The notes: a model not told the origin generated them from the letters alone. Counted from the stretch's first letter, positions 4,128 to 25,545 are shown. The stretch: DNA of 64,000 bases from Promethearchaeota archaeon (GCA_016839705.1 JAEOTR010000006.1:1-64000), one strand, 5' to 3'. Numbers and translations: made by a program.

Positions 4128-5219
4128 TTAAATCCATTTTTTCTTTCTAAAGAACCAGACCATTGATAGGGCAATAATTATCATTATAAATATAATTAAT
4201 GGATAAGCAAATGGGGTTGAAAATTCTGGGATATATACAAAATTCATCCCATAAAATCCCGCTAAAAATGATAATGGAATAAAAATTGTAGAGATCATTG
4301 TTAAAACTTTCATTATATCATTCATTTTGTTACTTACGCTGGAAAGATACATATCTAACATTCCAAAAATAATATCACGATAATTATCTAAGAGATCACT
4401 AATTCTAAAAATATGATCATATATATCTCTTAGATAAATTTGCATCTCATCTTCAATCAAATTTGATTGCTCACGCTGCAGTTTATTGATTACTTCTCTT
4501 ATTGGCCAAATTGATTTTCTTAACTCAATAGAAGATCTTTTCAATCCATAAATTTGTTGTAGAGTTTCGGGTTCAGGATTCTTAATCAAAACATCTTCAA
4601 TGTTTTCTATTTCCTCGCCTACCTTTTCTATTACAATGAAATAATTATCAACAATAATATCAATTAAAACATAAAATAGATAATCTGCCCCCATTAATCG
4701 AACTCTTCCTTTTGGAACTTGTATCCTTTCATAAATAGGATTGAAAAAGTTAGTATCACGCTCTTGGAATGATATTACGTAATTTTCTCCTAAAATCAAA
4801 CTTATTTGTTCAAATTCAAATTCCCCTTTATCTTGATTCCAACCTAACCTTTTAAATACTGCAAAAATATAGTTTCCATAATCTTCCAATTTAGGTCGTT
4901 GATTCGGGTTCAAGATGTCTTCTAAAACAAGTGGATGTAAACTAAAATGACGGCCAATCTCTTCAATAACGTCTACTTGATTAAGACCATATATATCAAT
5001 CCATCTAATTAACAGTTTTTCAATTTTAGTAAAATCTATCTGAATGTCTGTAAATTCTTGTAAATTAAAATAGTCTTCAGTGTAATCTGTTACTTTTATT
5101 TTAGTTTTTTCTTCTACTATATCCCCTGTATAAATTAGAGTTCCTGGAGGAAGACCAACTTTTTTCTTCTTTTTACTTGAAGGACTTGCTTTTCTAAGGG
5201 ATTTAGAAAATAACCTCAA
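4128..5219 (-). CDS. corA: Magnesium/cobalt transporter CorA
   Basis: GLPPGTLIY N-terminus, LHPLVLEDI, QRPKLEDY, GFYGMNF signature, two C-terminal TMs. Confidence 0.95.
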   Translation of the reverse strand: MRLFSKSLRKASPSSKKKKKVGLPPGTLIYTGDIVEEKTKIKVTDYTEDYFNLQEFTDIQIDFTKIEKLLIRWIDIYGLNQVDVIEEIGRHFSLHPLVLEDILNPNQRPKLEDYGNYIFAVFKRLGWNQDKGEFEFEQISLILGENYVISFQERDTNFFNPIYERIQVPKGRVRLMGADYLFYVLIDIIVDNYFIVIEKVGEEIENIEDVLIKNPEPETLQQIYGLKRSSIELRKSIWPIREVINKLQREQSNLIEDEMQIYLRDIYDHIFRISDLLDNYRDIIFGMLDMYLSSVSNKMNDIMKVLTMISTIFIPLSFLAGFYGMNFVYIPEFSTPFAYPLIIFIMIIIALSMVWFFRKKKWI

Positions 5220-5339
5220 ATTATTTCACTTAAACGCCAAAAAGTTAATTTTAACTAATAATTTAGTAAACTAACTTTTAAAATAAAAGTTTTCTTATAT
5301 TTTTTTTAATAAAATCTCCATTCTCTAAATAATAAAACC

Positions 5340-6275
5340 TTGGAGAAAAGTTATCGAATGAAAAGAATTTATAAAATAGTCATATGGACATCAATTATAG
5401 GAATTATTGTATTAGTTTATTTTTATTTTGGATTTAAACAATTATTAGTAAATATAATACTTTTAAATTTGGTTGCTTATGTCTTAAGGTCAATATTTAT
5501 TGATATATCTCATAGCTTGATTAAAAACTTATTATTTCGTTATTTAATCATGATAATTATAAATGCAATATGGTTATTATTCCCCTTTTGGTTGCTTTTT
5601 ATTATTTCAGATATTTTATTTGTAGCAATTATTTCTTTTCTGGTTGTAGCAATAGCTCTAACGTTTCAAAATATAATTAGTAATATTGCCTCAGGAGTAA
5701 TGCTTTTATCATCAGAAGGCTTTGAAGCCGGTGATTTAATTGAAACAAATGGAATTCAGGGTATTGTAAAAGAGATAACATTAAATAGTTTGAAGTTAGA
5801 GGATTTTGATGGATCTACCACATTTATTCCTAATAAAAATGCATTCAACTCATCAGTAGTCCGTTATACTCATAAACCTATTGAAAAGGAAAAAAAAATA
5901 GAAATTTCTAAAGTAGTAAAAAAAATCAGTAAAATGATAACTGGGGAAAAAAAAATAACTCGTTATATCAAAGTAGTTGAACTTTTAGATACTATAAATT
6001 CAGATAAACTTGATGAATTACTAACTCCAATCTTCGAGAAATATGAACCCATATTTGGGAAAAAACCTTTTTTTTATGCAAATAAGACTGTTAGTGGGAT
6101 TGTAAATCGTTTAAGTATCACTATTCAAATTATTACAGAGGACCCAAATTTAATTTTGACTTACACAGACCCTTTACTCAAGGAAATTCTTTTTAAAATA
6201 TATGATAAAGAAATTAATTTTGGATGGAACGATAAAGAAAAAGATTGTCTAGGAAATAGTCTTGAGGAGGATTGA
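5340..6275 (+). CDS. mscS: MscS-family small-conductance mechanosensitive channel
   Basis: N-terminal TMs, QNIISNIASGVMLL, FEAGDLIE..G.V.EI, IPN motif. Confidence 0.8.
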   Translation: MEKSYRMKRIYKIVIWTSIIGIIVLVYFYFGFKQLLVNIILLNLVAYVLRSIFIDISHSLIKNLLFRYLIMIIINAIWLLFPFWLLFIISDILFVAIISFLVVAIALTFQNIISNIASGVMLLSSEGFEAGDLIETNGIQGIVKEITLNSLKLEDFDGSTTFIPNKNAFNSSVVRYTHKPIEKEKKIEISKVVKKISKMITGEKKITRYIKVVELLDTINSDKLDELLTPIFEKYEPIFGKKPFFYANKTVSGIVNRLSITIQIITEDPNLILTYTDPLLKEILFKIYDKEINFGWNDKEKDCLGNSLEED

Positions 6276-7189
6276 AAACGGTATTATTTAATTCAGATTT
6301 GGAAGCATTAATATATCTTTTAATTATCGGGATAGGTTTTTACCTCTTAAATAAGATAATTAATGCAACATTTGGGAAAAGTGAAAAAGTACCTTTAAAA
6401 CAGAAAATCATCGTTAATTTTACTGTAAAAATTGTGACTGTTCTTGTAATAGTGTTCTTTATTATTGAGGGTTTTCCACTCGTTTCTTCGATTGATCCAA
6501 CTGGAACATATACAGCAGTACTTACTGGAGCAATTAGTACCGCAATCGCCTTCGCTTCTAGCAGTATATTTGCAAATTTTATTTCAGGTATTGTTTTAAT
6601 GCTAATAAGACCTTTTGAAGTTGAAGATTTAGTCAAAATTGAAGGAGATAAAGGTATTGTACGAGCGATAAATTTAACAAAAGTGAAGCTAGAGACATTT
6701 GATAATATAATAATCGAAAAATCAAATAGTCAAGTTCTTTATTCTAAAATTGCTAATTATACTGTAAAACTTGGGAAGAAAAAAACTTTTGAAGATTTTA
6801 AAAGTAAGATATTTGCACCTCAAGATACGGGATTTAAAGATATGTATGAAGATATTTTGAATTCCAAAAAAGAATTTGAAAATAACTTAAAAAGAGCCTA
6901 TGAGTCCTTTTCAACTAAATACTATCCAAAATTATACAATTATACTTTTAGAATGGCTTTTCCTTATAAAGGATTTCGAGTGATCATCGATAAAGTGGCA
7001 AAACTGTGTGATTTGTATAATCAGAAGAATATTTTTCGGATTAAACCCCAATTTGATGTAGTAAATTTTAATATAAGCATTATTGTTAAATTTCGATTAT
7101 TAACATTTAGTTCACAGAAAATATTTGATTTTCAACCTAAATTTGCCAATGATGTCTATAATATCATTTATAAATATAGATGTTCTTAA
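6272..7189 (+). CDS. mscS: MscS-family mechanosensitive channel (second, overlapping paralog)
   Basis: 3 TMs, FANFISGIVLMLIRPFEVEDLVKI..G.V. 4-bp overlap with the previous gene. Confidence 0.8.
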   Translation: MKTVLFNSDLEALIYLLIIGIGFYLLNKIINATFGKSEKVPLKQKIIVNFTVKIVTVLVIVFFIIEGFPLVSSIDPTGTYTAVLTGAISTAIAFASSSIFANFISGIVLMLIRPFEVEDLVKIEGDKGIVRAINLTKVKLETFDNIIIEKSNSQVLYSKIANYTVKLGKKKTFEDFKSKIFAPQDTGFKDMYEDILNSKKEFENNLKRAYESFSTKYYPKLYNYTFRMAFPYKGFRVIIDKVAKLCDLYNQKNIFRIKPQFDVVNFNISIIVKFRLLTFSSQKIFDFQPKFANDVYNIIYKYRCS

Positions 7190-7222: not shown

Positions 7223-9043
7223 TTATTGCAAATCATCCTTTTCTGCTTTTATATCTCCGTCTATTTCCAGTAGTTTTGAACCACAGCTCTCACAGTATAT
7301 AGTTAAACCCTTTACCAATTTTCTCACGAGTTCTAAGGGTAAATTATCCTCGCACTCAGGACAACATTGGGGATTTACAGCATTTTCAAATTCAGACATT
7401 ATAGAAGGGGTCATATCTTCATCTTCAGCAAAGATATTTACTTTTAAAACTGATTCCTGCTCATTTTGATTTCCTTTTAAAGTTAGTTTCAATCCAACAG
7501 AACGCTTGTTAAAAGATCCTTCAGCAAAACCTTTGATAGTTCCGAAAAATTTTCCCTCTATTTCTTGAGATTTCGCATCGATTATTGCGAAGTTCTTCGT
7601 TTTCAGTAAACTAGATAATTTATGATATAATTCTTCAGCGCCGCTAGGGATGGTAAATTCCTCATCATTTCTTTTAAATGTAAGAAGATCATTAGTAAGA
7701 TTCTCAAATTCCTCGTTAGAAACAATTTTTGGTTTTAATAATCCACATATCATTCTAATATCGTGCGGTTCTACATTAATGGTTTCAATTTGATCTTCTT
7801 CATTAATGAAGTTAATAAAGGAATGAATTGTTCCTCTAATGCAGTCTTTATTTGGTTTAAAGATGAAGGAAGGACTTACAAATCCACCCCCCTTTGAAAT
7901 CTTACTAAATTTAGCTCTATCAGGAGGGGATTCTGAATGTCCATCTATTCGAGATAAAATTAGGCTCTCTTCTGGATATGAATGGATATAAATATTAACA
8001 TCAGTTATATTATACTTTCCATTGTTAATCACCTTAATTTTAAAGACATATTCCCCTCCTTCTATTTGGCCCCCTCTAAGAACACGAACTGTTTGTGAAT
8101 CTACTTCTGCTTTAGAAGGTTCTAACATGCTTGGTTCGGGTCGAATCTCTTCAGTTGTAGTAACCTTAGGTTCTGGTTCTTGAGGTTCAGTATCTTCAAT
8201 AATTTCTTTTAACTTACCTTTTTCTAGCTTAAGCAGTATAATTTTATCTTTTGAAGCTGTTACCAATAATATAACTTTTTCATATCCTGCTTCTATTGTA
8301 TAAGTATCAAGACAGTTAATTTTTGATCCTAAGTTATATCCTCCCACATTTTCCTTATCTGAATTAATTATTTCTAGTAATCCAGTATTATGACCAATTA
8401 TCATTAGAGTTTGATCATAGAAATTGCACAATCCTAAGCTTGTAGGCTGGTTTTTAGATTGATATACCAACTCTGAATTCCCCTCATTATCAATATTAAG
8501 TACACTTCCGGATTTAAGTAGTAGATAAATCTTTCCTACAAACTCATCTGAAAAATTACCAATGGCACAATCTACAATTGGTTCGGGAGCTTTAAGTTCA
8601 ATAAACCTATTCCCTTCATTATCTAATCCTATTAATTGTTGATTTTCTAAACCAACTATAATTTCTTCTCTATTATCACCAAGTAAGTCCCCCGTTTCCA
8701 TACATATGATAGGAACTTTTAAGTTTGTGGACCAGATAGGATTTCCTTTTGAATCCATTACGTAGATGTTTCCATCTATTGCTCCTGAAATTAATTCTAT
8801 TCTATTTTCCTGGCTAATAGAAGCAATTTTAAACGTTGTTATATTTGATGAGAATTCAGTGAGAAATACTTCATTACCTTTTAAATCAAAAGCTTTCATT
8901 TCAGCACTAAATGAACACCCAATGATTTCGGGCTCTGAATCTCCTAATAGATTTGCAATTATACAAGAATATACCGTTCTCTTAAATTGACGACTCCAGA
9001 CGGACTTTACTTTAACTAATTGTATAGCCATTTCATATCTCAA
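7223..9043 (-). CDS. FG-GAP-like beta-propeller + adaptin-appendage-like (Ig sandwich + platform) + Zn-ribbon protein
   Basis: Six ~43-aa blades (GDLLGDNREEIIVG; ...DxxGN ends), Pro/Glu linker, Ig-like VRVLRGG...KIKVIN domain, LLKPKIVSNEEF platform entry, CPEC...CESCG. Confidence 0.7.
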   Translation of the reverse strand: MRYEMAIQLVKVKSVWSRQFKRTVYSCIIANLLGDSEPEIIGCSFSAEMKAFDLKGNEVFLTEFSSNITTFKIASISQENRIELISGAIDGNIYVMDSKGNPIWSTNLKVPIICMETGDLLGDNREEIIVGLENQQLIGLDNEGNRFIELKAPEPIVDCAIGNFSDEFVGKIYLLLKSGSVLNIDNEGNSELVYQSKNQPTSLGLCNFYDQTLMIIGHNTGLLEIINSDKENVGGYNLGSKINCLDTYTIEAGYEKVILLVTASKDKIILLKLEKGKLKEIIEDTEPQEPEPKVTTTEEIRPEPSMLEPSKAEVDSQTVRVLRGGQIEGGEYVFKIKVINNGKYNITDVNIYIHSYPEESLILSRIDGHSESPPDRAKFSKISKGGGFVSPSFIFKPNKDCIRGTIHSFINFINEEDQIETINVEPHDIRMICGLLKPKIVSNEEFENLTNDLLTFKRNDEEFTIPSGAEELYHKLSSLLKTKNFAIIDAKSQEIEGKFFGTIKGFAEGSFNKRSVGLKLTLKGNQNEQESVLKVNIFAEDEDMTPSIMSEFENAVNPQCCPECEDNLPLELVRKLVKGLTIYCESCGSKLLEIDGDIKAEKDDLQ

Positions 9044-9108
9044 ATGAAAATTCGATTCTATTATTTATATAATAATATCCGGATTTTAGTATTTTCACTT
9101 CTTCGTGG

Positions 9109-9555
9109 CTATTCTTTATCTACATCCTCTTTAACTCGATTAACCAATTTCTTAAATGCTTCTGTTAAATTCCCTAATTCTGTTTCCTGGGTTGCTATTT
9201 CTTTATCAAAATCTGTAGCTATCTCTTGGAAAGATACAGTTTTTAGATCGTGTGTACAGAGTTTTAATGCTATGTTTGTTAATTTTTGAATTGGTTTTAC
9301 CACAGAATCTGCGAGTTTTAAACCCACGAAAAGGCTTATTACGATGATTTCCCAAAGGGTTACAAGTATAATTGCAGACTGTATCTCAATATTGGCAAGA
9401 AATTCTTCTGAAGCTCCAGTGATACTGTTACCTATAATATTATTAAATACAATGGCAATAATAGCAATAGTTCCTAATGCTATCACGTTTAAAATAATAA
9501 AGCTTAATAGAATTTCCTTCCTTATTCCGGATTTTCGTTTCTTTTCTTGAGCCAT
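9109..9555 (-). CDS. Small 2-TM HAMP-domain protein without output domain
   Basis: Two hydrophobic helices, then VVKPIQKLT...[19 protein letters not shown] pattern, then stop. Confidence 0.75.
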
Positions 9556-9557
9556 TT

Positions 9558-11291
9558 TTATCCCTCCTCTGGTATAAAACCTTCTATTTCTGAAGATGCC
9601 ATTATTTCTTTAACCCTTGTAAAAGCATCTGCAATCCGTTTTTGAACATTTTTTGCAGAATAAATAGTGATATATTTGCCAAGTGGGGTAGCATTGACCA
9701 TTTGCGTCATTTTTCTATGCACATTTTTCAATTCTGGTCCAACTCCAATTAAAACAAAATTGAGAGGAGGCTGAATTGACTTTATGAGAGTTGCAATTTT
9801 TCTTGGGTTGAATTCCTTGCTTAAATTATCTTCACCATCAGTTAATGTTATTACCCATTTCTGACGTTCTTGGGATTCTTCTCCCTGAATCATTGGTGCT
9901 TTGCTCAATATGTCAATAGCATGTGCTATTGCATCATAAAGGGCAGTCTCATACCTTGTATTTTCTAAATATTTAAATAAATCAACAATTTCCGCAATAT
10001 TTCCTCTCTTCTCTGTAAGTTCGAGAACCATATTTATTATAGAGTGAAAACCGACAATTGCAACACGATCTCCGATATTAATGGTTTCGTTAAAGACACC
10101 TAAAGCACCCATTCGTGCAGCTTGCATTTTTCCCCATTCTTTCATACTGCCAGATTGATCAATTACAAACACTACATCCTTTTTACTAACAAGAAGATCA
10201 TTTATTTTTGAAAGTTCAAGCTCTGCTTTATGATGAAGGGTTGTATCCCCTTGATTTTCATATAATTTGATCATTGCTTCAAGATTATTTTTCATTAGAG
10301 GATAATTCTGTAGATTTCCTGCCAATTTCAAAGATTTGTTGAAATGCTCTTCTGCTTCTTCTGGTTTATTTTTTAACATTGAAAGTCTTCCTAATTGAAA
10401 TTCGTCTTCTGCTAATCCTACATTATAATCCCATTTGCTATCAAGTCTAAAAGCTTCATTTAGTTGTTCTTGAGCGAGCTCTAATTCATTTTTTAGAATG
10501 TGAAGAACCCCTATATTTCTTTTTCTAGCGGCAATTCCTTCATCATCATCCATTTCCTTATCCAATTCAAGAGCTTTTTCAAAATCTTTCATAGCTTCGA
10601 CCCACTTTTCTTCGGAAAGGAAGAGAATACCACGATTATTATATCGAGAGCTTAATCCTCCTATATCATCCATTTGCTCACCGATTTCAATTGATTTAGC
10701 ATAACAATCTTTAGCCCTGTTATTATCTCCCCACATTCGATATATATTTCCAAGATTATTCAGGCACATTCCCTGTCCATTAAGATTTTTAGATGTCCGG
10801 AATAGTTCTAAAGCGGCGTTATAATTAGTAAAAGCAAGATTCATGTCACCACGATAATAACTTTTATTTCCCAAACGCATGGTAACCAATAAATTTTGAA
10901 AAGATTGAGCTAGAATACCAATTTCGTTTCCCCTAATCCTACCATCCATCGAAATCTCTTGTGATAAATCACCTTCAGCTATCATTTCTATCGATTGAGT
11001 TAATTCATTAATAGGTACTGTAATTCTACTGGAGATACGAATTACACCCAATGAAATTACAATGATAATAATAATAGCTATAATAATGAACGTTATTATC
11101 AAAGGAACTTTAAATGCTTCAACTGAGCCAAAACCTAAATTAACATATTCATCAATAATCGAAAATAACTGTAATATTAAAGCTATTGTCAAAATTACGA
11201 ATGGAATTAAAATGCAAGCAATCATGGTTAATATAATCCTTCGTCGTAATGACTTTTTCTTCCCAATTTGTTGTACATCCAGATCTTCCAT
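9558..11291 (-). CDS. Membrane-anchored HAMP-TPR-vWA protein
   Basis: 2 TMs, HAMP ([22 protein letters not shown]), TPRs ([24 protein letters not shown]), vWA with intact MIDAS (DQSGS, T, LTDG). Confidence 0.85.
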
Positions 11292-11356
11292 CTTTTTTCT
11301 CTCCTTTTTCTTTTTTTAATATTGTGATATCTCTTTTATTTAAACAATTAAAAAAA

Positions 11357-12109
11357 TTAAATTCCCTTATCTATCCCTTCATAAATTAAAAATATTGATG
11401 TGAAAATAAAGGCTTTAACAATAGCCAACCCTATTAATCCGAAATCTTCAGCCCCAAATGCTGCATCAATGATACCAAACAAGGAAGCCATAGAAAGTCC
11501 AACACCCATCGAATATCTTTTCCATTTTGCACTTTTGTTATCCATTTTTCGACCACTATACATAATAATAGGACCAAGAAATATCATCATTATAATCAAC
11601 ATTAATGACAACAATGTTAATGCTAAACCTCTGATTCCTGTCTCAGGTAAACCGCCAGGAGATGCTTCCCATTTAGTATAAATTGAAGGATTCGTATAAA
11701 TCAAAATCGCAAAAATTACGCTAATAATCGCCATGATACCAGTTACTGGAATTTTGTAACGACCGTCTTTAAATGTTTCCATCGCAACGTAGGACCAAAT
11801 TGGTATTCCCAGTGCGGGTCCCCATGCATATCCAAGAACTCCCACGTTTGGATCACCATCTGGATACCCTAAAGGGTTAAGTCCTAATATCATCAGTAAA
11901 AAACTTGCAGAGACACCAAACCATGCTTGATAAACTGAAAATAAACCAACTCCTCTTAATATGATCTTCTTTTTAACTTTAGGATTTGGTGCTCTTCGAG
12001 CATGTTTAAAAAAGAGGACAAATGCCAAAATATAACCACTGAGAATAATCTCTAAACCAGTTACCCCATTTATAATATCAATATTAGGAAGGACCATTTT
12101 ATTAGTCAC
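11357..12109 (-). CDS. Seven-transmembrane protein (paralog of 24805-25545)
   Basis: Seven hydrophobic segments in 250 aa. Shares NG, W..S.SFL, NP, K.K, TM6 Asp and TM7 K/R..I.TS...Y.G with the 246-aa protein. Confidence 0.7.
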   Translation of the reverse strand: MTNKMVLPNIDIINGVTGLEIILSGYILAFVLFFKHARRAPNPKVKKKIILRGVGLFSVYQAWFGVSASFLLMILGLNPLGYPDGDPNVGVLGYAWGPALGIPIWSYVAMETFKDGRYKIPVTGIMAIISVIFAILIYTNPSIYTKWEASPGGLPETGIRGLALTLLSLMLIIMMIFLGPIIMYSGRKMDNKSAKWKRYSMGVGLSMASLFGIIDAAFGAEDFGLIGLAIVKAFIFTSIFLIYEGIDKGI

Positions 12110-12284
12110 CCATTTAGTAATATTAGTTTTGTACTAATACTATATAAAGTTATTTGTCATCAAAAGTTGTTAAATTTATCAATTTACCAATAAAAAGATA
12201 TCTTCTACCACTAAATTTTTTATTTAATACTAGAATCATATTTTTATAAAACAGGAAATGAATAGGTAAAAGGGTTTAATTGAA

Positions 12285-12971
12285 ATGAAGAGAATAGGAA
12301 TCTTGGGCGGTATGTCTTATGAGTCAACAATTAAATATTATGAATTAATTCTCCAAAGATATTATAAGAAATACTGCGATTATAATTATCCTGAAGTTAT
12401 TATTTTTAGTTTAAACTTCCAAAAAGTTATAGAATATGAATTAAGTGATGATAGGGCTATATATATAGAGTATTTAATGAGTGGTATCAGATCACTGGAA
12501 AGTGCAGGTGTTGATTTTGTAATTATGGCAGCTAATTCACCTCACGCGGTGTTTGAAGATTTAGAAGAATTAGCTACGGTTCCCATTTTAAGTATAGTAA
12601 AAGCTACAATAGAACAAGCTAAAAAGGAAAAAATGAAAAAGTTGCTTTTATTAGGGATAAAATTTACGATGCAATCAACATTTTATCAAGAATTTTCCAA
12701 GAAGTTGGGTATTAATGTAATAACACCTTCTATTCAAGAACAGGATGAGATAGATCAAATAATATTTAGCGAACTAGTTATTGGTCTTAATCGAAACAAA
12801 TCCAAGGAGAGATTACTTGAAATTATCAATTCTTATGAGATAGATGGAGTGATTTTAGGATGTACTGAATTACCTTTAATTTTAAGTCAAAAAGACACAA
12901 ATATCAAGCTGCTTGATACCTTAGAGCTTCATGTAGAAGCAACCTTTAATTATTACCTATCTAAAAAATAG
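12285..12971 (+). CDS. Aspartate/glutamate racemase family (YgeA/RacX-like)
   Basis: MKRIGILGGMSYESTIKYY, AANSPH, ILGCTELP. Confidence 0.9.
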   Translation: MKRIGILGGMSYESTIKYYELILQRYYKKYCDYNYPEVIIFSLNFQKVIEYELSDDRAIYIEYLMSGIRSLESAGVDFVIMAANSPHAVFEDLEELATVPILSIVKATIEQAKKEKMKKLLLLGIKFTMQSTFYQEFSKKLGINVITPSIQEQDEIDQIIFSELVIGLNRNKSKERLLEIINSYEIDGVILGCTELPLILSQKDTNIKLLDTLELHVEATFNYYLSKK

Positions 12972-13031
12972 TTGTTTATAAGTTTTTTTAACTTTCAAAC
13001 TTTATCTAATATTATTAACCCTAAGTGGTAA

Positions 13032-15314
13032 TTGATTATCGGACGTTTCAAACTTACAACTGTAAAATTCAAAGATCTCGCACCAATCATACTAGTTATG
13101 TTATTGCTGTTTGTCTCAACAGCATGTGCAAATATGCTTATTCCAAGTTATAATGCTATTAGACTTGAGTTTAACATTCCTGAAGCGTTAATCGCAATCC
13201 CTGATGCATTTTTTGTATTAATAAGTGCTGTTTTTGCGTTACTTTGGGGATATTGGGCGGATAAAATTGATAGGGGGAAAGTCCTGATGGCAGGGGCTTT
13301 TTCATGGACAATAGGAATGGTGCTAACCGCATTTTCCCCTAATTATTTATTGTTAGTAATTTCTAGGATGTCAAGTGGGGTAGGATTGGGATGTGTGTTA
13401 CCAGTTGGGTATTCAATTATTTCTGATGCCATTCCCGCAGAAGAAAGATCAGGCTGGTTTGGTACTCTTGCGATATTGAGTTCTATCTCCAATGGAGCTG
13501 GTCAAGGATTATCCGCATTTTTAGGTCCTATTTTTTCTTGGAGATTTCCATTCCTTTTCCTTGCGGTTATAAGTATAATACTTATTTTCGTTCTTTATTT
13601 CGTGAAAATCCCTCAAAGAGGGGCAGGTGAGGATGAACTATTAGATTTAGTAGAGTTAAATTTAGAATATAGCTATAGAATATCAAAAGAAGACTTAGGA
13701 GCTATCATAAAAAAGAAAACTAATCTCTATTTAATAATTCAAGGTTTTTTTTCTGTAATACCCGGAACTGTACTTGTCTATTTTACAACTTCCATGTTAA
13801 TAACTGATTTTTTTAGCAGGATTCCGCCAGAAATTCAACTTCAAACAGCTACCATCTTTGCGGGGATGATAGGGATAGGTTATCTTCTTGGTAATGCTGT
13901 ATTTGCTCGTTTAGGAGATATTCTATTCCGTCACAACAAAAAAAATAGAGCAAGATTAGCTACAATATGTCTTATTTTTTCTATTCCTTTCGCAGTGGTA
14001 CTCCTTATTTCATTGCGCCCAATCGATACCGATATTCTTGGTATTAATTTTCCTATTCCCCCCGATACCATCCCTACAGACCAATTATGGTCTTACATTC
14101 TTAGGACTATTGGGGCAATATTTATAGCATATCCTTCATACATAATATTTTTTATATTTGCTATAATGGCTTCGATGTTAGGGGCGGGACCAGTTGCTAA
14201 CAGAAATGCTGTTATGATAGATGTAAATATGCCTGAACATAAAGGCTCCGCAGCTTCTTTTTTTAAACTTTCAGAACAAATAAGTAAGGGAGTAACACTT
14301 TTAATATCTTTTACTCTCATTTCAATACTCGGTAGTGTTTTCAATATGATTTTTCTAACAATCTTTTTTTGGCTTCCCGCAGCAATCTTGTGGTTTTTAG
14401 CAAGTAAGAATGTAGAAAAAGATATGACTTATAAATCAAGGATTTTATCAGAGAGAAAACAGGTAAGTTTAATTGATTATATTTTTGAATTAGAAATTCA
14501 GATAGATAGAGCCATTCAAAAAGTACAAGATTCAAAGTACTATATTCGAACAAATCTAAATAAGTTTAACAAATTACTTGATGACGCATTGACGATCTTT
14601 AAATTTTGCGAACATGAAGGTGTATCGAGAAGTATCACAAATATCGAGAAAAAAGCACATATCATGTACTTACGTGTTCTACTAATTAAACATGAGACAA
14701 ATAATATACGTAAAAAACTTGAAAATCCAGATCTACCAACCTCTGAATTAAATAATTTAAAAAATGAATTAGGTCAAAAATATAAAACAATAAGTGAATG
14801 GGAAAAAAGTACATTTGGAGAAATCCAAACTTACTATGAGGACGCAAATTTGAAAATCATTGAAGCAAGATTGAATCGTAAAAAACATTTAATAATCGGT
14901 CTAAGGAAAATATCTGAAGCCATTAAAATCTATGAACGAGTAAAATTTTTATTAAGTGAAAGGTTGGAAATTGTAGAAGAAAAGCCCGATTTATCGGAAG
15001 ATGAATCAGTTATACGTGATAAAGAACAGGAGTTATTTAATAAATGTAGTAAATCTTTAAATGCAACAGTAAAACTAAAAGAAGAAATAGACTCTACATT
15101 TAATCAATTAAGACAAAAAGGAATTCAAATTGAAGATTTAAGAATAATTTCTGATCTTACACAAGAATATGATATAAATCTTTATGATGTAATTTTGGAT
15201 ACATTCAAACAAGATCCTCTTACAAAATATGCTCTTATTGATACGTTAGATACTATAGATGATATATTTAAACAATATGATAACTGGAAAGAAGTAGATC
15301 AAAAGGTATTTTAA
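13032..15314 (+). CDS. MFS transporter (Spinster-like) with ~290-aa C-terminal helical extension
   Basis: Motif A WGYWADKIDRGK, SIISDAIPAEERS, 12-TM pattern up to ~aa 460, then a soluble all-helical tail. Confidence 0.85.
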   Translation: MIIGRFKLTTVKFKDLAPIILVMLLLFVSTACANMLIPSYNAIRLEFNIPEALIAIPDAFFVLISAVFALLWGYWADKIDRGKVLMAGAFSWTIGMVLTAFSPNYLLLVISRMSSGVGLGCVLPVGYSIISDAIPAEERSGWFGTLAILSSISNGAGQGLSAFLGPIFSWRFPFLFLAVISIILIFVLYFVKIPQRGAGEDELLDLVELNLEYSYRISKEDLGAIIKKKTNLYLIIQGFFSVIPGTVLVYFTTSMLITDFFSRIPPEIQLQTATIFAGMIGIGYLLGNAVFARLGDILFRHNKKNRARLATICLIFSIPFAVVLLISLRPIDTDILGINFPIPPDTIPTDQLWSYILRTIGAIFIAYPSYIIFFIFAIMASMLGAGPVANRNAVMIDVNMPEHKGSAASFFKLSEQISKGVTLLISFTLISILGSVFNMIFLTIFFWLPAAILWFLASKNVEKDMTYKSRILSERKQVSLIDYIFELEIQIDRAIQKVQDSKYYIRTNLNKFNKLLDDALTIFKFCEHEGVSRSITNIEKKAHIMYLRVLLIKHETNNIRKKLENPDLPTSELNNLKNELGQKYKTISEWEKSTFGEIQTYYEDANLKIIEARLNRKKHLIIGLRKISEAIKIYERVKFLLSERLEIVEEKPDLSEDESVIRDKEQELFNKCSKSLNATVKLKEEIDSTFNQLRQKGIQIEDLRIISDLTQEYDINLYDVILDTFKQDPLTKYALIDTLDTIDDIFKQYDNWKEVDQKVF

Positions 15315-24804: not shown

Positions 24805-25545
24805 ATGACATTGAACCCCTTGGATGTTTTAAACGGAATATTTAGTTTCATTTTTGTGATGATTTCTTTAGTCGTTGGCTTTTTAATACTGATAAGATAT
24901 TTCAGATATAAAGAGAAAATTTATTTTTTAGTTGGAGCTACCTGGATATTAATATCTGAACCATGGTGGCCTTCTAGTTTATCTTTTCTAGTATCATTAA
25001 GTAATGGAGTAGGAATAACGCCAATGATATACTTTTTAATAGGGAATGTGTTGGTCCCACTGGCGATTGCCTTATGGTTACTAGCATTTTCAGATTTTTT
25101 ATACACTGAAAAACGTAAATTGATACTCCTCCTATTTGCAATTATAGGAATAATCTTCGAAGTGTTATTCTTCACTCTATTATTTATAAATCCAGATCTA
25201 ATTGGAATTTTAAACCCACCGGTTGATGTAAGTTATAATTTCTTCATAATGATTTTCCTATTAATCTTTATCTTAATTGTTGTCATTAGTGGTTTATTGT
25301 TCGCTCGTTTATCTTTGAAGTCTGATGATCCAGAAGTTAAACTAAAAGGAAAATTATTAGTAATTGCGTATATTGCCTTTTTCGTAGGAGCATTATTAGA
25401 TTCATCTATACCATTAAATGCGCTTGGAGTAATATTTGTGAGGTTAATATTAATAACGAGTGCCATCTTTTGGTATGGTGGGTTCTTACTTCCTCATTGG
25501 ATGAAAAAGCTCTTTCTAAAACAGAAAAAGGTAATACAAGGATAA
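24805..25545 (+). CDS. Seven-transmembrane protein (paralog of 11357-12109)
   Basis: Seven hydrophobic helices, basic loops after TM1, TM3 and TM5, basic C-terminal tail. Confidence 0.75.
   Translation: MTLNPLDVLNGIFSFIFVMISLVVGFLILIRYFRYKEKIYFLVGATWILISEPWWPSSLSFLVSLSNGVGITPMIYFLIGNVLVPLAIALWLLAFSDFLYTEKRKLILLLFAIIGIIFEVLFFTLLFINPDLIGILNPPVDVSYNFFIMIFLLIFILIVVISGLLFARLSLKSDDPEVKLKGKLLVIAYIAFFVGALLDSSIPLNALGVIFVRLILITSAIFWYGGFLLPHWMKKLFLKQKKVIQG

Follow-up and report, generated by a model that had tools for sequence, protein, structure and literature searches.

A four-gene cluster of a Promethearchaeota archaeon as a possible 7-TM derivative of an enzyme-free pan-Asgard receptor

A 64,000-nucleotide stretch of DNA from a Promethearchaeota archaeon (GCA_016839705.1 JAEOTR010000006.1:1-64000; the whole stretch is called the window below) carries, at positions 7223-12109, four minus-strand genes for a predicted seven-transmembrane (7-TM) protein, two HAMP subunits, and a soluble propeller protein that ends in an ear (appendage) domain and a zinc ribbon. 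We propose, with about an even chance of being right, that this cluster is a lineage-specific derivative of an enzyme-free receptor found across the Asgard archaea, in which signals would pass from the 7-TM protein through a HAMP heterodimer and a TPR-vWA arm to a propeller-ear adaptor. The proposal draws on the domains and folds of the encoded proteins, the paralogy of the two HAMP subunits, the conserved linkage of the genes, the single origin of the short receptor form to which the cluster belongs, the exclusive association of the 7-TM gene with that form, and the variability of the third partner in other lineages. The four genes are as follows.

Gene 1, 11357-12109, minus strand: predicted 7-TM membrane protein, N-terminus outside and C-terminus inside; likely start at ATG 12097.
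Gene 2, 9558-11291, minus strand: two transmembrane segments, an outer loop of ~25 residues, HAMP, TPR array, vWA.
Gene 3, 9109-9555, minus strand: two transmembrane segments, a short loop, a HAMP-like helix pair, no output domain.
Gene 4, 7223-9043, minus strand: soluble propeller, hinge, bipartite appendage, zinc ribbon; likely start at ATG 9031.

The starts of genes 1 and 4 are placed at these ATG codons because the orthologs begin at residue 5.

Proteins with the HAMP-TPR-vWA architecture of gene 2 are present in seven Asgard families of our sample, and nearly all of them are long forms of ~900 residues that carry a dCache_1 ectodomain. At 15 of 18 distant loci the next gene on the same strand encodes a dCache-HAMP protein of 470-670 residues, whose Cache-HAMP part is paralogous to that of its neighbor; the remaining three loci have a contig end or no open reading frame (ORF) at the partner position. 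This two-subunit pair is found with nearly all long forms of families f2, f7, f14, f16, f24, and f29, the paralogy of the long-form subunits reaches E values of 1e-12 to 1e-31, and the ancestral dCache-HAMP-TPR-vWA and dCache-HAMP subunits very probably form a HAMP heterodimer. The third gene, by comparison, varies by lineage, as would fit a variable client of a constant sensor: in f2 it encodes a propeller with a zinc ribbon (381-382 aa, no ear), in f24 a propeller with a zinc finger (436-442 aa, no ear) in convergent orientation, and in f16 and f29 a pyridoxal phosphate (PLP) protein resembling Orn/Arg decarboxylases, at some loci with a 4-nt overlap, while in f14 HEAT repeats are fused to the partner subunit itself. 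The propellers of f2 and f24 and the gene 4 propeller are homologs (profile E 1e-20 to 6e-42). The decarboxylase genes (~600 aa; L047:8774-10582, L049:4877-6712, L053:4914-6740, L054:7137-8903, and L058:4811-6601) hint at a role of the receptor family in sensing or controlling amine metabolism. The output-less dCache-HAMP partners of f14 are longer, at 651-665 aa (L052:293-2290 and L057:2700-4655), and the one at L052 has a zinc ribbon and HEAT repeats beyond its HAMP domain.

The window's own family (f1) has both a long and a short form of this receptor, and one genome (G192) carries the two together. The long form comprises an 872-aa subunit, a ~507-aa subunit, and a ~622-aa propeller-ear protein, and at the two loci that include upstream sequence (L036 and L038) no co-oriented gene precedes it. 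The short form, to which the window's cluster belongs, shares ~50% identity with the long form over the HAMP-TPR-vWA core, and the outer loops of its subunits are ~20-25 residues long. In a maximum-likelihood tree of the HAMP-TPR-vWA part, the short forms make up one clade (96/98), beside which the long forms of f1 group as its sister clade (98/99). Next outside comes f2, and all remaining branches are long forms. Parsimony gives the short form a single origin, with both Cache ectodomains lost after duplication of the operon.

Close orthologs of gene 1 (at least 68% identity) are located only directly upstream of short-form HAMP pairs, and no 7-TM match was obtained in genomes that carry the long form alone. 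That a 7-TM gene is present only where both Cache ectodomains are gone is as expected if it replaces them as the input, and the idea of the first-pass annotation of this DNA that the 7-TM protein senses thereby gains indirect support, from its position solely beside subunits that lost their ectodomains. Hydropathy and the alternating positive-inside loop pattern point to seven helices and an external N-terminus: strongly basic loops (36-48, 111-119, and 186-199) alternate with acidic ones. All 20 homologs compared share E20, D215, and a YAWGP motif, K232 varies hardly at all among them, and the three charged residues are predicted to lie within the membrane. The family is represented by Asgard records only, and gene 1 matches no Pfam or NCBIfam family at cut-off. 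Its neighbors in the Atlas are unnamed clusters with no common Pfam family, the top two mostly from Promethearchaeota and the third mostly bacterial; the nearest named lead there, HisKA_7TM (score 0.88, 10% of members), is not usable as evidence. The window holds a second 7-TM gene (24805-25545, plus strand), whose suspected paralogy with gene 1 proved weak (24% identity, E 0.017) and which has its own orthologs, at ~40% identity and in different gene contexts, at L069:6805-7578 and L070:2011-2733.

Between the membrane and the presumed client would stand the products of genes 2 and 3. The domains of gene 2 are these.

10887-11036, minus strand: HAMP domain, residues 86-135; Pfam PF00672, 35.7 bits against a cut-off of 25.
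10203-10883, minus strand: TPR array, residues ~137-363; several TPR families above the Pfam cut-off.
9699-10178, minus strand: vWA domain with an intact metal ion-dependent adhesion site (MIDAS), residues 372-531; VWA_2 43.5 bits and VWA 40.7 bits, both above cut-off.

The gene 2 transmembrane segments (residues 19-37 and 65-83) lead immediately into the HAMP domain, which also matches Af1503 HAMP chains. The MIDAS motif is intact: DQSGS lies at residue 378, with ETALYD and then TDGEDN after it; these supply the DxSxS, Thr, and Asp of a vWA-MIDAS domain, and a metal site is predicted. Gene 3 likewise encodes two transmembrane segments and is colinear with residues 1-135 of gene 2, over which the two genes are, as judged from their sequences, paralogs; it is also colinear with the TM2-HAMP region of histidine-kinase models, and its long-form relatives reach a HAMP E value of 1.7e-5, one of them scoring 25.5 bits. 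The two products would, like the ancestral pair, form a HAMP heterodimer. Both the HAMP-TPR-vWA composition with its MIDAS and the lack of a kinase, methyl-accepting chemotaxis protein (MCP), or cyclase output, leaving protein-interaction domains alone, had been read from the DNA in the first-pass annotation; the scores above bear out the former, and Pfam and NCBIfam scans, which found no kinase, MCP, cyclase, or other enzymatic domain in the four proteins, bear out the latter. The nearest natural protein of solved structure to the TPR array is, by sequence, the TPR domain of LGN/Pins (GPSM2; E ~2e-10). A reading of the cluster as a defense system was rejected, PADLOC matches being limited to generic TPR.

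The four genes are a conserved unit. The complete order is present in five genomes. It recurs at 60-73% identity between unrelated flanks at L031 (G049), L034 (G113), L040 (G291), and L059, and is cut by contig ends in G246, L061, G192, and G252. Of 68 genomes in the window's family, eight match gene 2 as well as gene 4 strongly, and the two single-gene cases lie at contig ends; homologs of genes 1, 2, and 4 are found on metagenome contigs of identical nucleotide count in at least seven cases (38547, 15103, 42002, 57817, 93102, 41143, and 21157). Comparison of gene neighborhoods across Asgard genomes had been suggested at the outset as a check on the cluster, and it speaks for linkage, with orthologs in the same order amid different flanks. 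The layout originally described, four co-oriented genes with gaps of 65, 2, and 65 bp, is likewise confirmed by the ORFs, all of which lie on the minus strand. The ATG of gene 3 is 2 nt beyond the stop of gene 2, and in orthologous loci these two genes are 2 nt apart or overlap.

Gene 4 would supply the adaptor. Its parts were delimited on an AlphaFold2 (AF2) model with a predicted local distance difference test score (pLDDT) of 78 for the whole protein.

8204-9043, minus strand: beta-propeller, residues 6-280; AF2 pLDDT ~90, without signal peptide or transmembrane segment.
8096-8200, minus strand: disordered hinge, residues 282-316; pLDDT <50.
7379-8089, minus strand: bipartite ear, made of an Ig-like beta-sandwich (residues 319-432) and an alpha/beta platform (~443-555).
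7223-7369, minus strand: CxxC...CxxC zinc ribbon, acidic tail, and stop, read from the sequence; relatives have zinc-ribbon Pfam matches.

The hinge is acidic and proline-rich (11 Asp/Glu and 6 Pro in 35 residues). When the C-terminal 290 residues were folded alone with a deeper alignment, pLDDT rose to 86. Foldseek searches of the PDB with the ear returned a COPI appendage on top (9qpq_H, E 7e-11, TM-score 0.57/0.66), then the AP2 alpha ear (1e-8) and also the beta2 and gamma-COP ears, the top 14 matches all being ears. VIA gave 1w80_A (Z 14.8, 212 residues, rmsd 4.8), 3h1z_A (Z 13.9), and 1r4x_A (Z 12.9), followed by BBSome chain 6vbu chain 9 (Z 11.4, over chain residues 410-631); here, too, every match that spans both subdomains is an ear, and the others are restricted to the Ig-like half. 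With two independent aligners in agreement, the modeled C-terminal half of gene 4 is, at the level of fold, an adaptin/COPI-type ear. It resembles the AP2 alpha/beta2 and COPI gamma/beta appendages in having an Ig-like sandwich and a platform behind a flexible hinge (Z 14.8, 13.9, and 12.9 over 208-214 residues; Foldseek E 7e-11 to 1e-7). Unlike them, it sits on a beta-propeller rather than on an alpha-solenoid trunk, is followed by a zinc ribbon, and has no sequence match to the Pfam appendage families: hmmscan of 29 module sequences at E<=10 gave zinc-ribbon and chance matches only. We know of no clathrin or coat partners for it.

This ear is a promiscuous tail module. A profile of the ear and zinc ribbon retrieves 680 clusters at 50% identity, 398 of them at E<=1e-10, in proteins of 173-2867 residues that usually carry the module near the C-terminus; in f9 it is present in 71 of 76 genomes, in many copies that are often in tandem. 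In nine sampled proteins its partners are NosD/beta-helix, SBP_bac_5, TSP3, SBBP and LVIVD propellers, Big domains, or WD40 repeats. The N-terminal parts of these proteins (P0295-P0440, with Pfam run on the nine) are mostly of extracellular type (NosD, SBP_bac_5, TSP3, SBBP, LVIVD, and Big). Given that the f2 and f24 propellers have no ear and that the ear itself is promiscuous, the ear of gene 4 was inserted locally into a protein whose propeller and ribbon were joined beforehand, and is therefore a lineage-restricted addition rather than a BBSome inheritance. Two side observations concern the module. P0055 (783 aa), a relative of gene 4, combines the propeller family with an ear at 501-778 and a precomputed TIR_2 (PF13676) match. 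Two tandem genes of ~700 aa on one contig (G252:C57; L039:1527-3629 and L039:3692-5797) encode an LVIVD-repeat propeller with the ear module, the zinc ribbon being replaced by a segment with a weak DnaD_N match that may be a winged helix.

Appendage regions with IG-like and TBP-like subdomains, some with a zinc ribbon or a PQQ/WD40-type propeller, have been described in archaea including Asgard members, where the proteins were proposed to be protein-interaction hubs and lie in ESCRT neighborhoods or are fused to Vps28-C, steadiness-box, or longin domains (Makarova et al. 2024, 10.1101/2024.02.06.579148); that paper makes no mention of HAMP or vWA. Gene 4 is like these proteins in its IG and TBP-like region with a zinc ribbon and unlike them in its surroundings, since no ESCRT gene directly flanks the cluster and genes 1-4 encode no ESCRT domain, as far as the immediate flanks and Pfam are concerned.

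The window's cluster and the pan-Asgard dCache pair have in common the HAMP-TPR-vWA core, the output-less paralogous partner, and a homologous propeller partner; the cluster differs in having lost both Cache ectodomains, in its upstream 7-TM gene, and in the ear inserted into the propeller partner, which is confined to this family. In the model that we favor, the ancestral unit would consist of two adjacent paralogous subunits that have the product of a lineage-variable third gene as their client. In the window's family the whole operon would have been duplicated, one copy would have lost both Cache ectodomains, and a dedicated 7-TM gene now lies directly upstream of that copy. A stimulus would be detected by the 7-TM protein in place of the lost Cache sensors, and the signal would then travel laterally within the membrane to the 2-TM HAMP pair, much as from sensory rhodopsin II to HtrII. 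The ensuing HAMP rearrangement could expose the TPR-vWA(MIDAS) arm differently or change its geometry, and this arm would bind or release the soluble propeller-hinge-ear-zinc-ribbon protein, whose ear could in turn recruit further factors. The protein contacts, the direction of signaling, and the ligand in this receptor model are what we infer from the genes, as is any coat or trafficking function of the cluster.

Sensory rhodopsin II and HtrII offer the closest precedent for the membrane step: an archaeal 7-TM receptor and a 2-TM HAMP transducer are encoded side by side, and the transducer ends in an MCP domain that feeds CheA. In the cluster, too, a stand-alone 7-TM gene adjoins a 2-TM HAMP transducer with minimal outer loops, and by analogy signaling could proceed via intramembrane helix contacts. 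Unlike that system, the cluster has two different transducer subunits, and its output is TPR-vWA rather than MCP. Nor is its 7-TM protein a rhodopsin by its sequence: microbial rhodopsins have an invariant retinal Lys in TM7, whereas gene 1 has no Pfam rhodopsin match and the TM7 Lys is an Arg in one homolog (P0290), on which grounds a rhodopsin reading was rejected.

Several observations weigh against the receptor model. The HAMP match of gene 3 stays below the Pfam cut-off (14.6 bits, E 0.04), and Pfam and NCBIfam recognize no ligand-binding family for the 7-TM protein. That protein might instead be a regulated target, such as a channel or transporter, or a membrane anchor, with sensing left to the HAMP pair (of a membrane property, for example) or to the cytoplasmic TPR, vWA, and propeller side. 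Its conserved membrane residues E20, D215, and K232 would fit a path for ions or a substrate just as well, no sensor family is recognized for it, and its neighbors in the window are transport genes (CorA, two MscS-like, and MFS). These flanking genes are not conserved with the cluster, however, and the restriction of the 7-TM gene to loci where both Cache ectodomains were lost is what one expects of a replacement input; on balance we consider a target or anchor role unlikely. The last step of the model can be questioned separately, because gene 4 might be a general ear adaptor, for example one linked to ESCRT, that functions independently of the three membrane genes and merely adjoins them. 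It has a TATA-like element of its own and, in orthologs, a longer upstream gap; the f24 propeller gene is convergent and so not always co-transcribed with the receptor pair; and Asgard ears have been linked to ESCRT parts (Makarova et al. 2024, 10.1101/2024.02.06.579148). One genome (L062/G301), moreover, keeps gene 4 without sensors, in an N-terminally shortened version, no HAMP-TPR-vWA gene having been found in that genome, and another (L065/G302) retains only a C-terminal remnant. Yet the unlinked copies are either truncated at the N-terminus or no more than a remnant, three Asgard families have a homologous propeller gene beside the receptor pair even though its strand and domains differ among them, the presence and absence of genes 2 and 4 agree across the family, and the direct flanks are ion-channel, transporter, and racemase genes rather than ESCRT genes. 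An independent gene 4 strikes us as distinctly improbable.

More far-reaching is the possibility that gene 4 is a true relative of BBS2/BBS7/BBS9 and the cluster a proto-coat with the 7-TM protein as the cargo to be sorted. Searched as a whole against the PDB with Foldseek, the gene 4 model finds BBSome chains in all ten of its best matches (E 1e-17 to 5e-12, 520-636 columns), 6vbu chain 9 aligns with the ear at Z 11.4, and the order of propeller, linker, Ig-like (GAE) domain, and platform is that of BBS2, BBS7, and BBS9. The propeller, furthermore, repeatedly matches BBS2_Mid, BBS7, PHTB1_N, and Itfg2 below the Pfam thresholds (for gene 4 itself, BBS2_Mid with 23 bits where 27 are required and the BBS7 propeller with E 0.013, besides Itfg2), and the gene 4 profile finds ITFG2 (3.4e-4) and BBS1 (0.076) weakly among PDB sequences. 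All of these sequence matches, however, are confined to the propeller, with none in the ear, and the BBSome ranking of the whole model depends on the combination of domains, because the propeller alone is no closer to BBS proteins than to the WD40 and NHL propellers (VIA Z 23-25); a rigid alignment of the whole model registers the propeller alone. Adaptin and COPI ears match better than BBS ears do. In the BBS2/7/9 proteins (6VBU-type structures) the propeller is followed by a coiled coil and the chain ends in an alpha-helical domain, whereas the gene 4 model has no coiled coil, C-terminal helical domain, or long helices and contains a disordered hinge and a zinc ribbon instead. Nor is the architecture inherited across orthologs, the propeller partners of f2 (381-382 aa) and f24 (436-442 aa) being earless, and the occurrence of ear and ribbon in 680 clusters behind many unrelated N-terminal domains argues for a local fusion. 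The "appendage" of the first-pass annotation and its loose BBSome echo thus hold at the level of fold, in both Foldseek and VIA, while at the level of sequence the similarity is sub-threshold and limited to the propeller; the BBSome-like propeller-ear architecture itself has to be given up as a common heritage in favor of a lineage-specific fusion. Nothing in the data makes the cluster a BBSome ancestor, and we regard a true BBS relationship as very unlikely. Just as doubtful in our estimation is the broader idea that the cluster is an archaeal counterpart of the handling of eukaryotic 7-TM proteins by coat- or BBSome-type adaptors, that is, a pre-eukaryotic receptor-to-adaptor pathway with the same folds whose ear recruits membrane-remodeling or sorting machinery.

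In the literature on BBSome and ITFG2 in Asgard archaea and on HAMP, vWA, TPR, and Cache domains in archaea, we found no paper that describes the dCache receptor pair or its 7-TM variant. The main text of the Nature Microbiology catalog of eukaryotic signature proteins (ESPs) does not mention BBS. In favor of BBS kinship, the ESPs catalogued in a 2026 preprint include a BBS7/ITFG2 Asgard cluster (10.64898/2026.10.28.762692), which may or may not be the gene 4 family. The parts of the system are of known kinds, namely HAMP transducers, a vWA MIDAS site, and archaeal ear domains; new here are the 7-TM gene in place of Cache ectodomains, the single origin of the short form, and the decaying unlinked copies of gene 4. 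If the receptor model is true, Asgard archaea possess a form of transmembrane signaling that ends in the regulated docking of proteins instead of in phosphorylation, methylation, or nucleotide synthesis. The sensor module seems to be exchangeable, to judge from the apparent substitution of a separate 7-TM protein for the Cache ectodomains, and an adaptin-type ear, a eukaryote-signature fold, would be placed on the cytoplasmic side of a receptor. As ear and zinc ribbon form a common C-terminal tail of hundreds of Asgard proteins, the role of ears before coats becomes a testable question, and the case of gene 4 cautions that a BBSome-like order of domains can arise through recent fusion.

How the cluster is transcribed can be judged from a few elements read in the DNA, which has a G+C content of ~30% across the window.

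12141-12148, minus strand: TATA-like TTTATATA, ~45 nt 5' of the likely gene 1 ATG.
11333-11344: TATA-like element between genes 1 and 2.
11301-11304, minus strand: Shine-Dalgarno-like GGAG, 9 nt 5' of the gene 2 ATG.
9061-9072, minus strand: TATA-like TTATATAAATAA, ~36 nt 5' of ATG 9031.

The TTTATATA element at 12141-12148 is a candidate promoter of the four-gene unit, and the GGAG before gene 2, if functional, is what one would expect before a gene in the interior of a polycistronic message. The TATA-like elements placed by the first-pass annotation at ~9062-9071 and ~11338-11345 are present, at 9061-9072 and 11333-11344. Its caveat that they may mean separate transcription units is reasonable for gene 4, which probably has its own promoter: besides the TATA-like element, the upstream gap is longer in orthologous loci, at 125-156 bp, and one genome keeps gene 4 without the sensors. 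In that genome (L062:7013-8707) and at L065:7001-7374 the propeller-ear gene lies between the same flanking genes without sensor genes; ~45 N-terminal residues are absent from the former copy, and the latter is a 128-residue remnant with no ORF of at least 90 aa over it.

Relatives of the window's proteins come almost exclusively from records named Promethearchaeota, Lokiarchaeota, and similar. On either side of the cluster (window 4128-7189 and 12285-15314) lie genes for a CorA Mg2+ transporter, two adjacent MscS-like channels, an Asp/Glu racemase, and a major facilitator superfamily (MFS) transporter, none of which travels with the cluster in other genomes; the MFS transporter has a long C-terminal extension.

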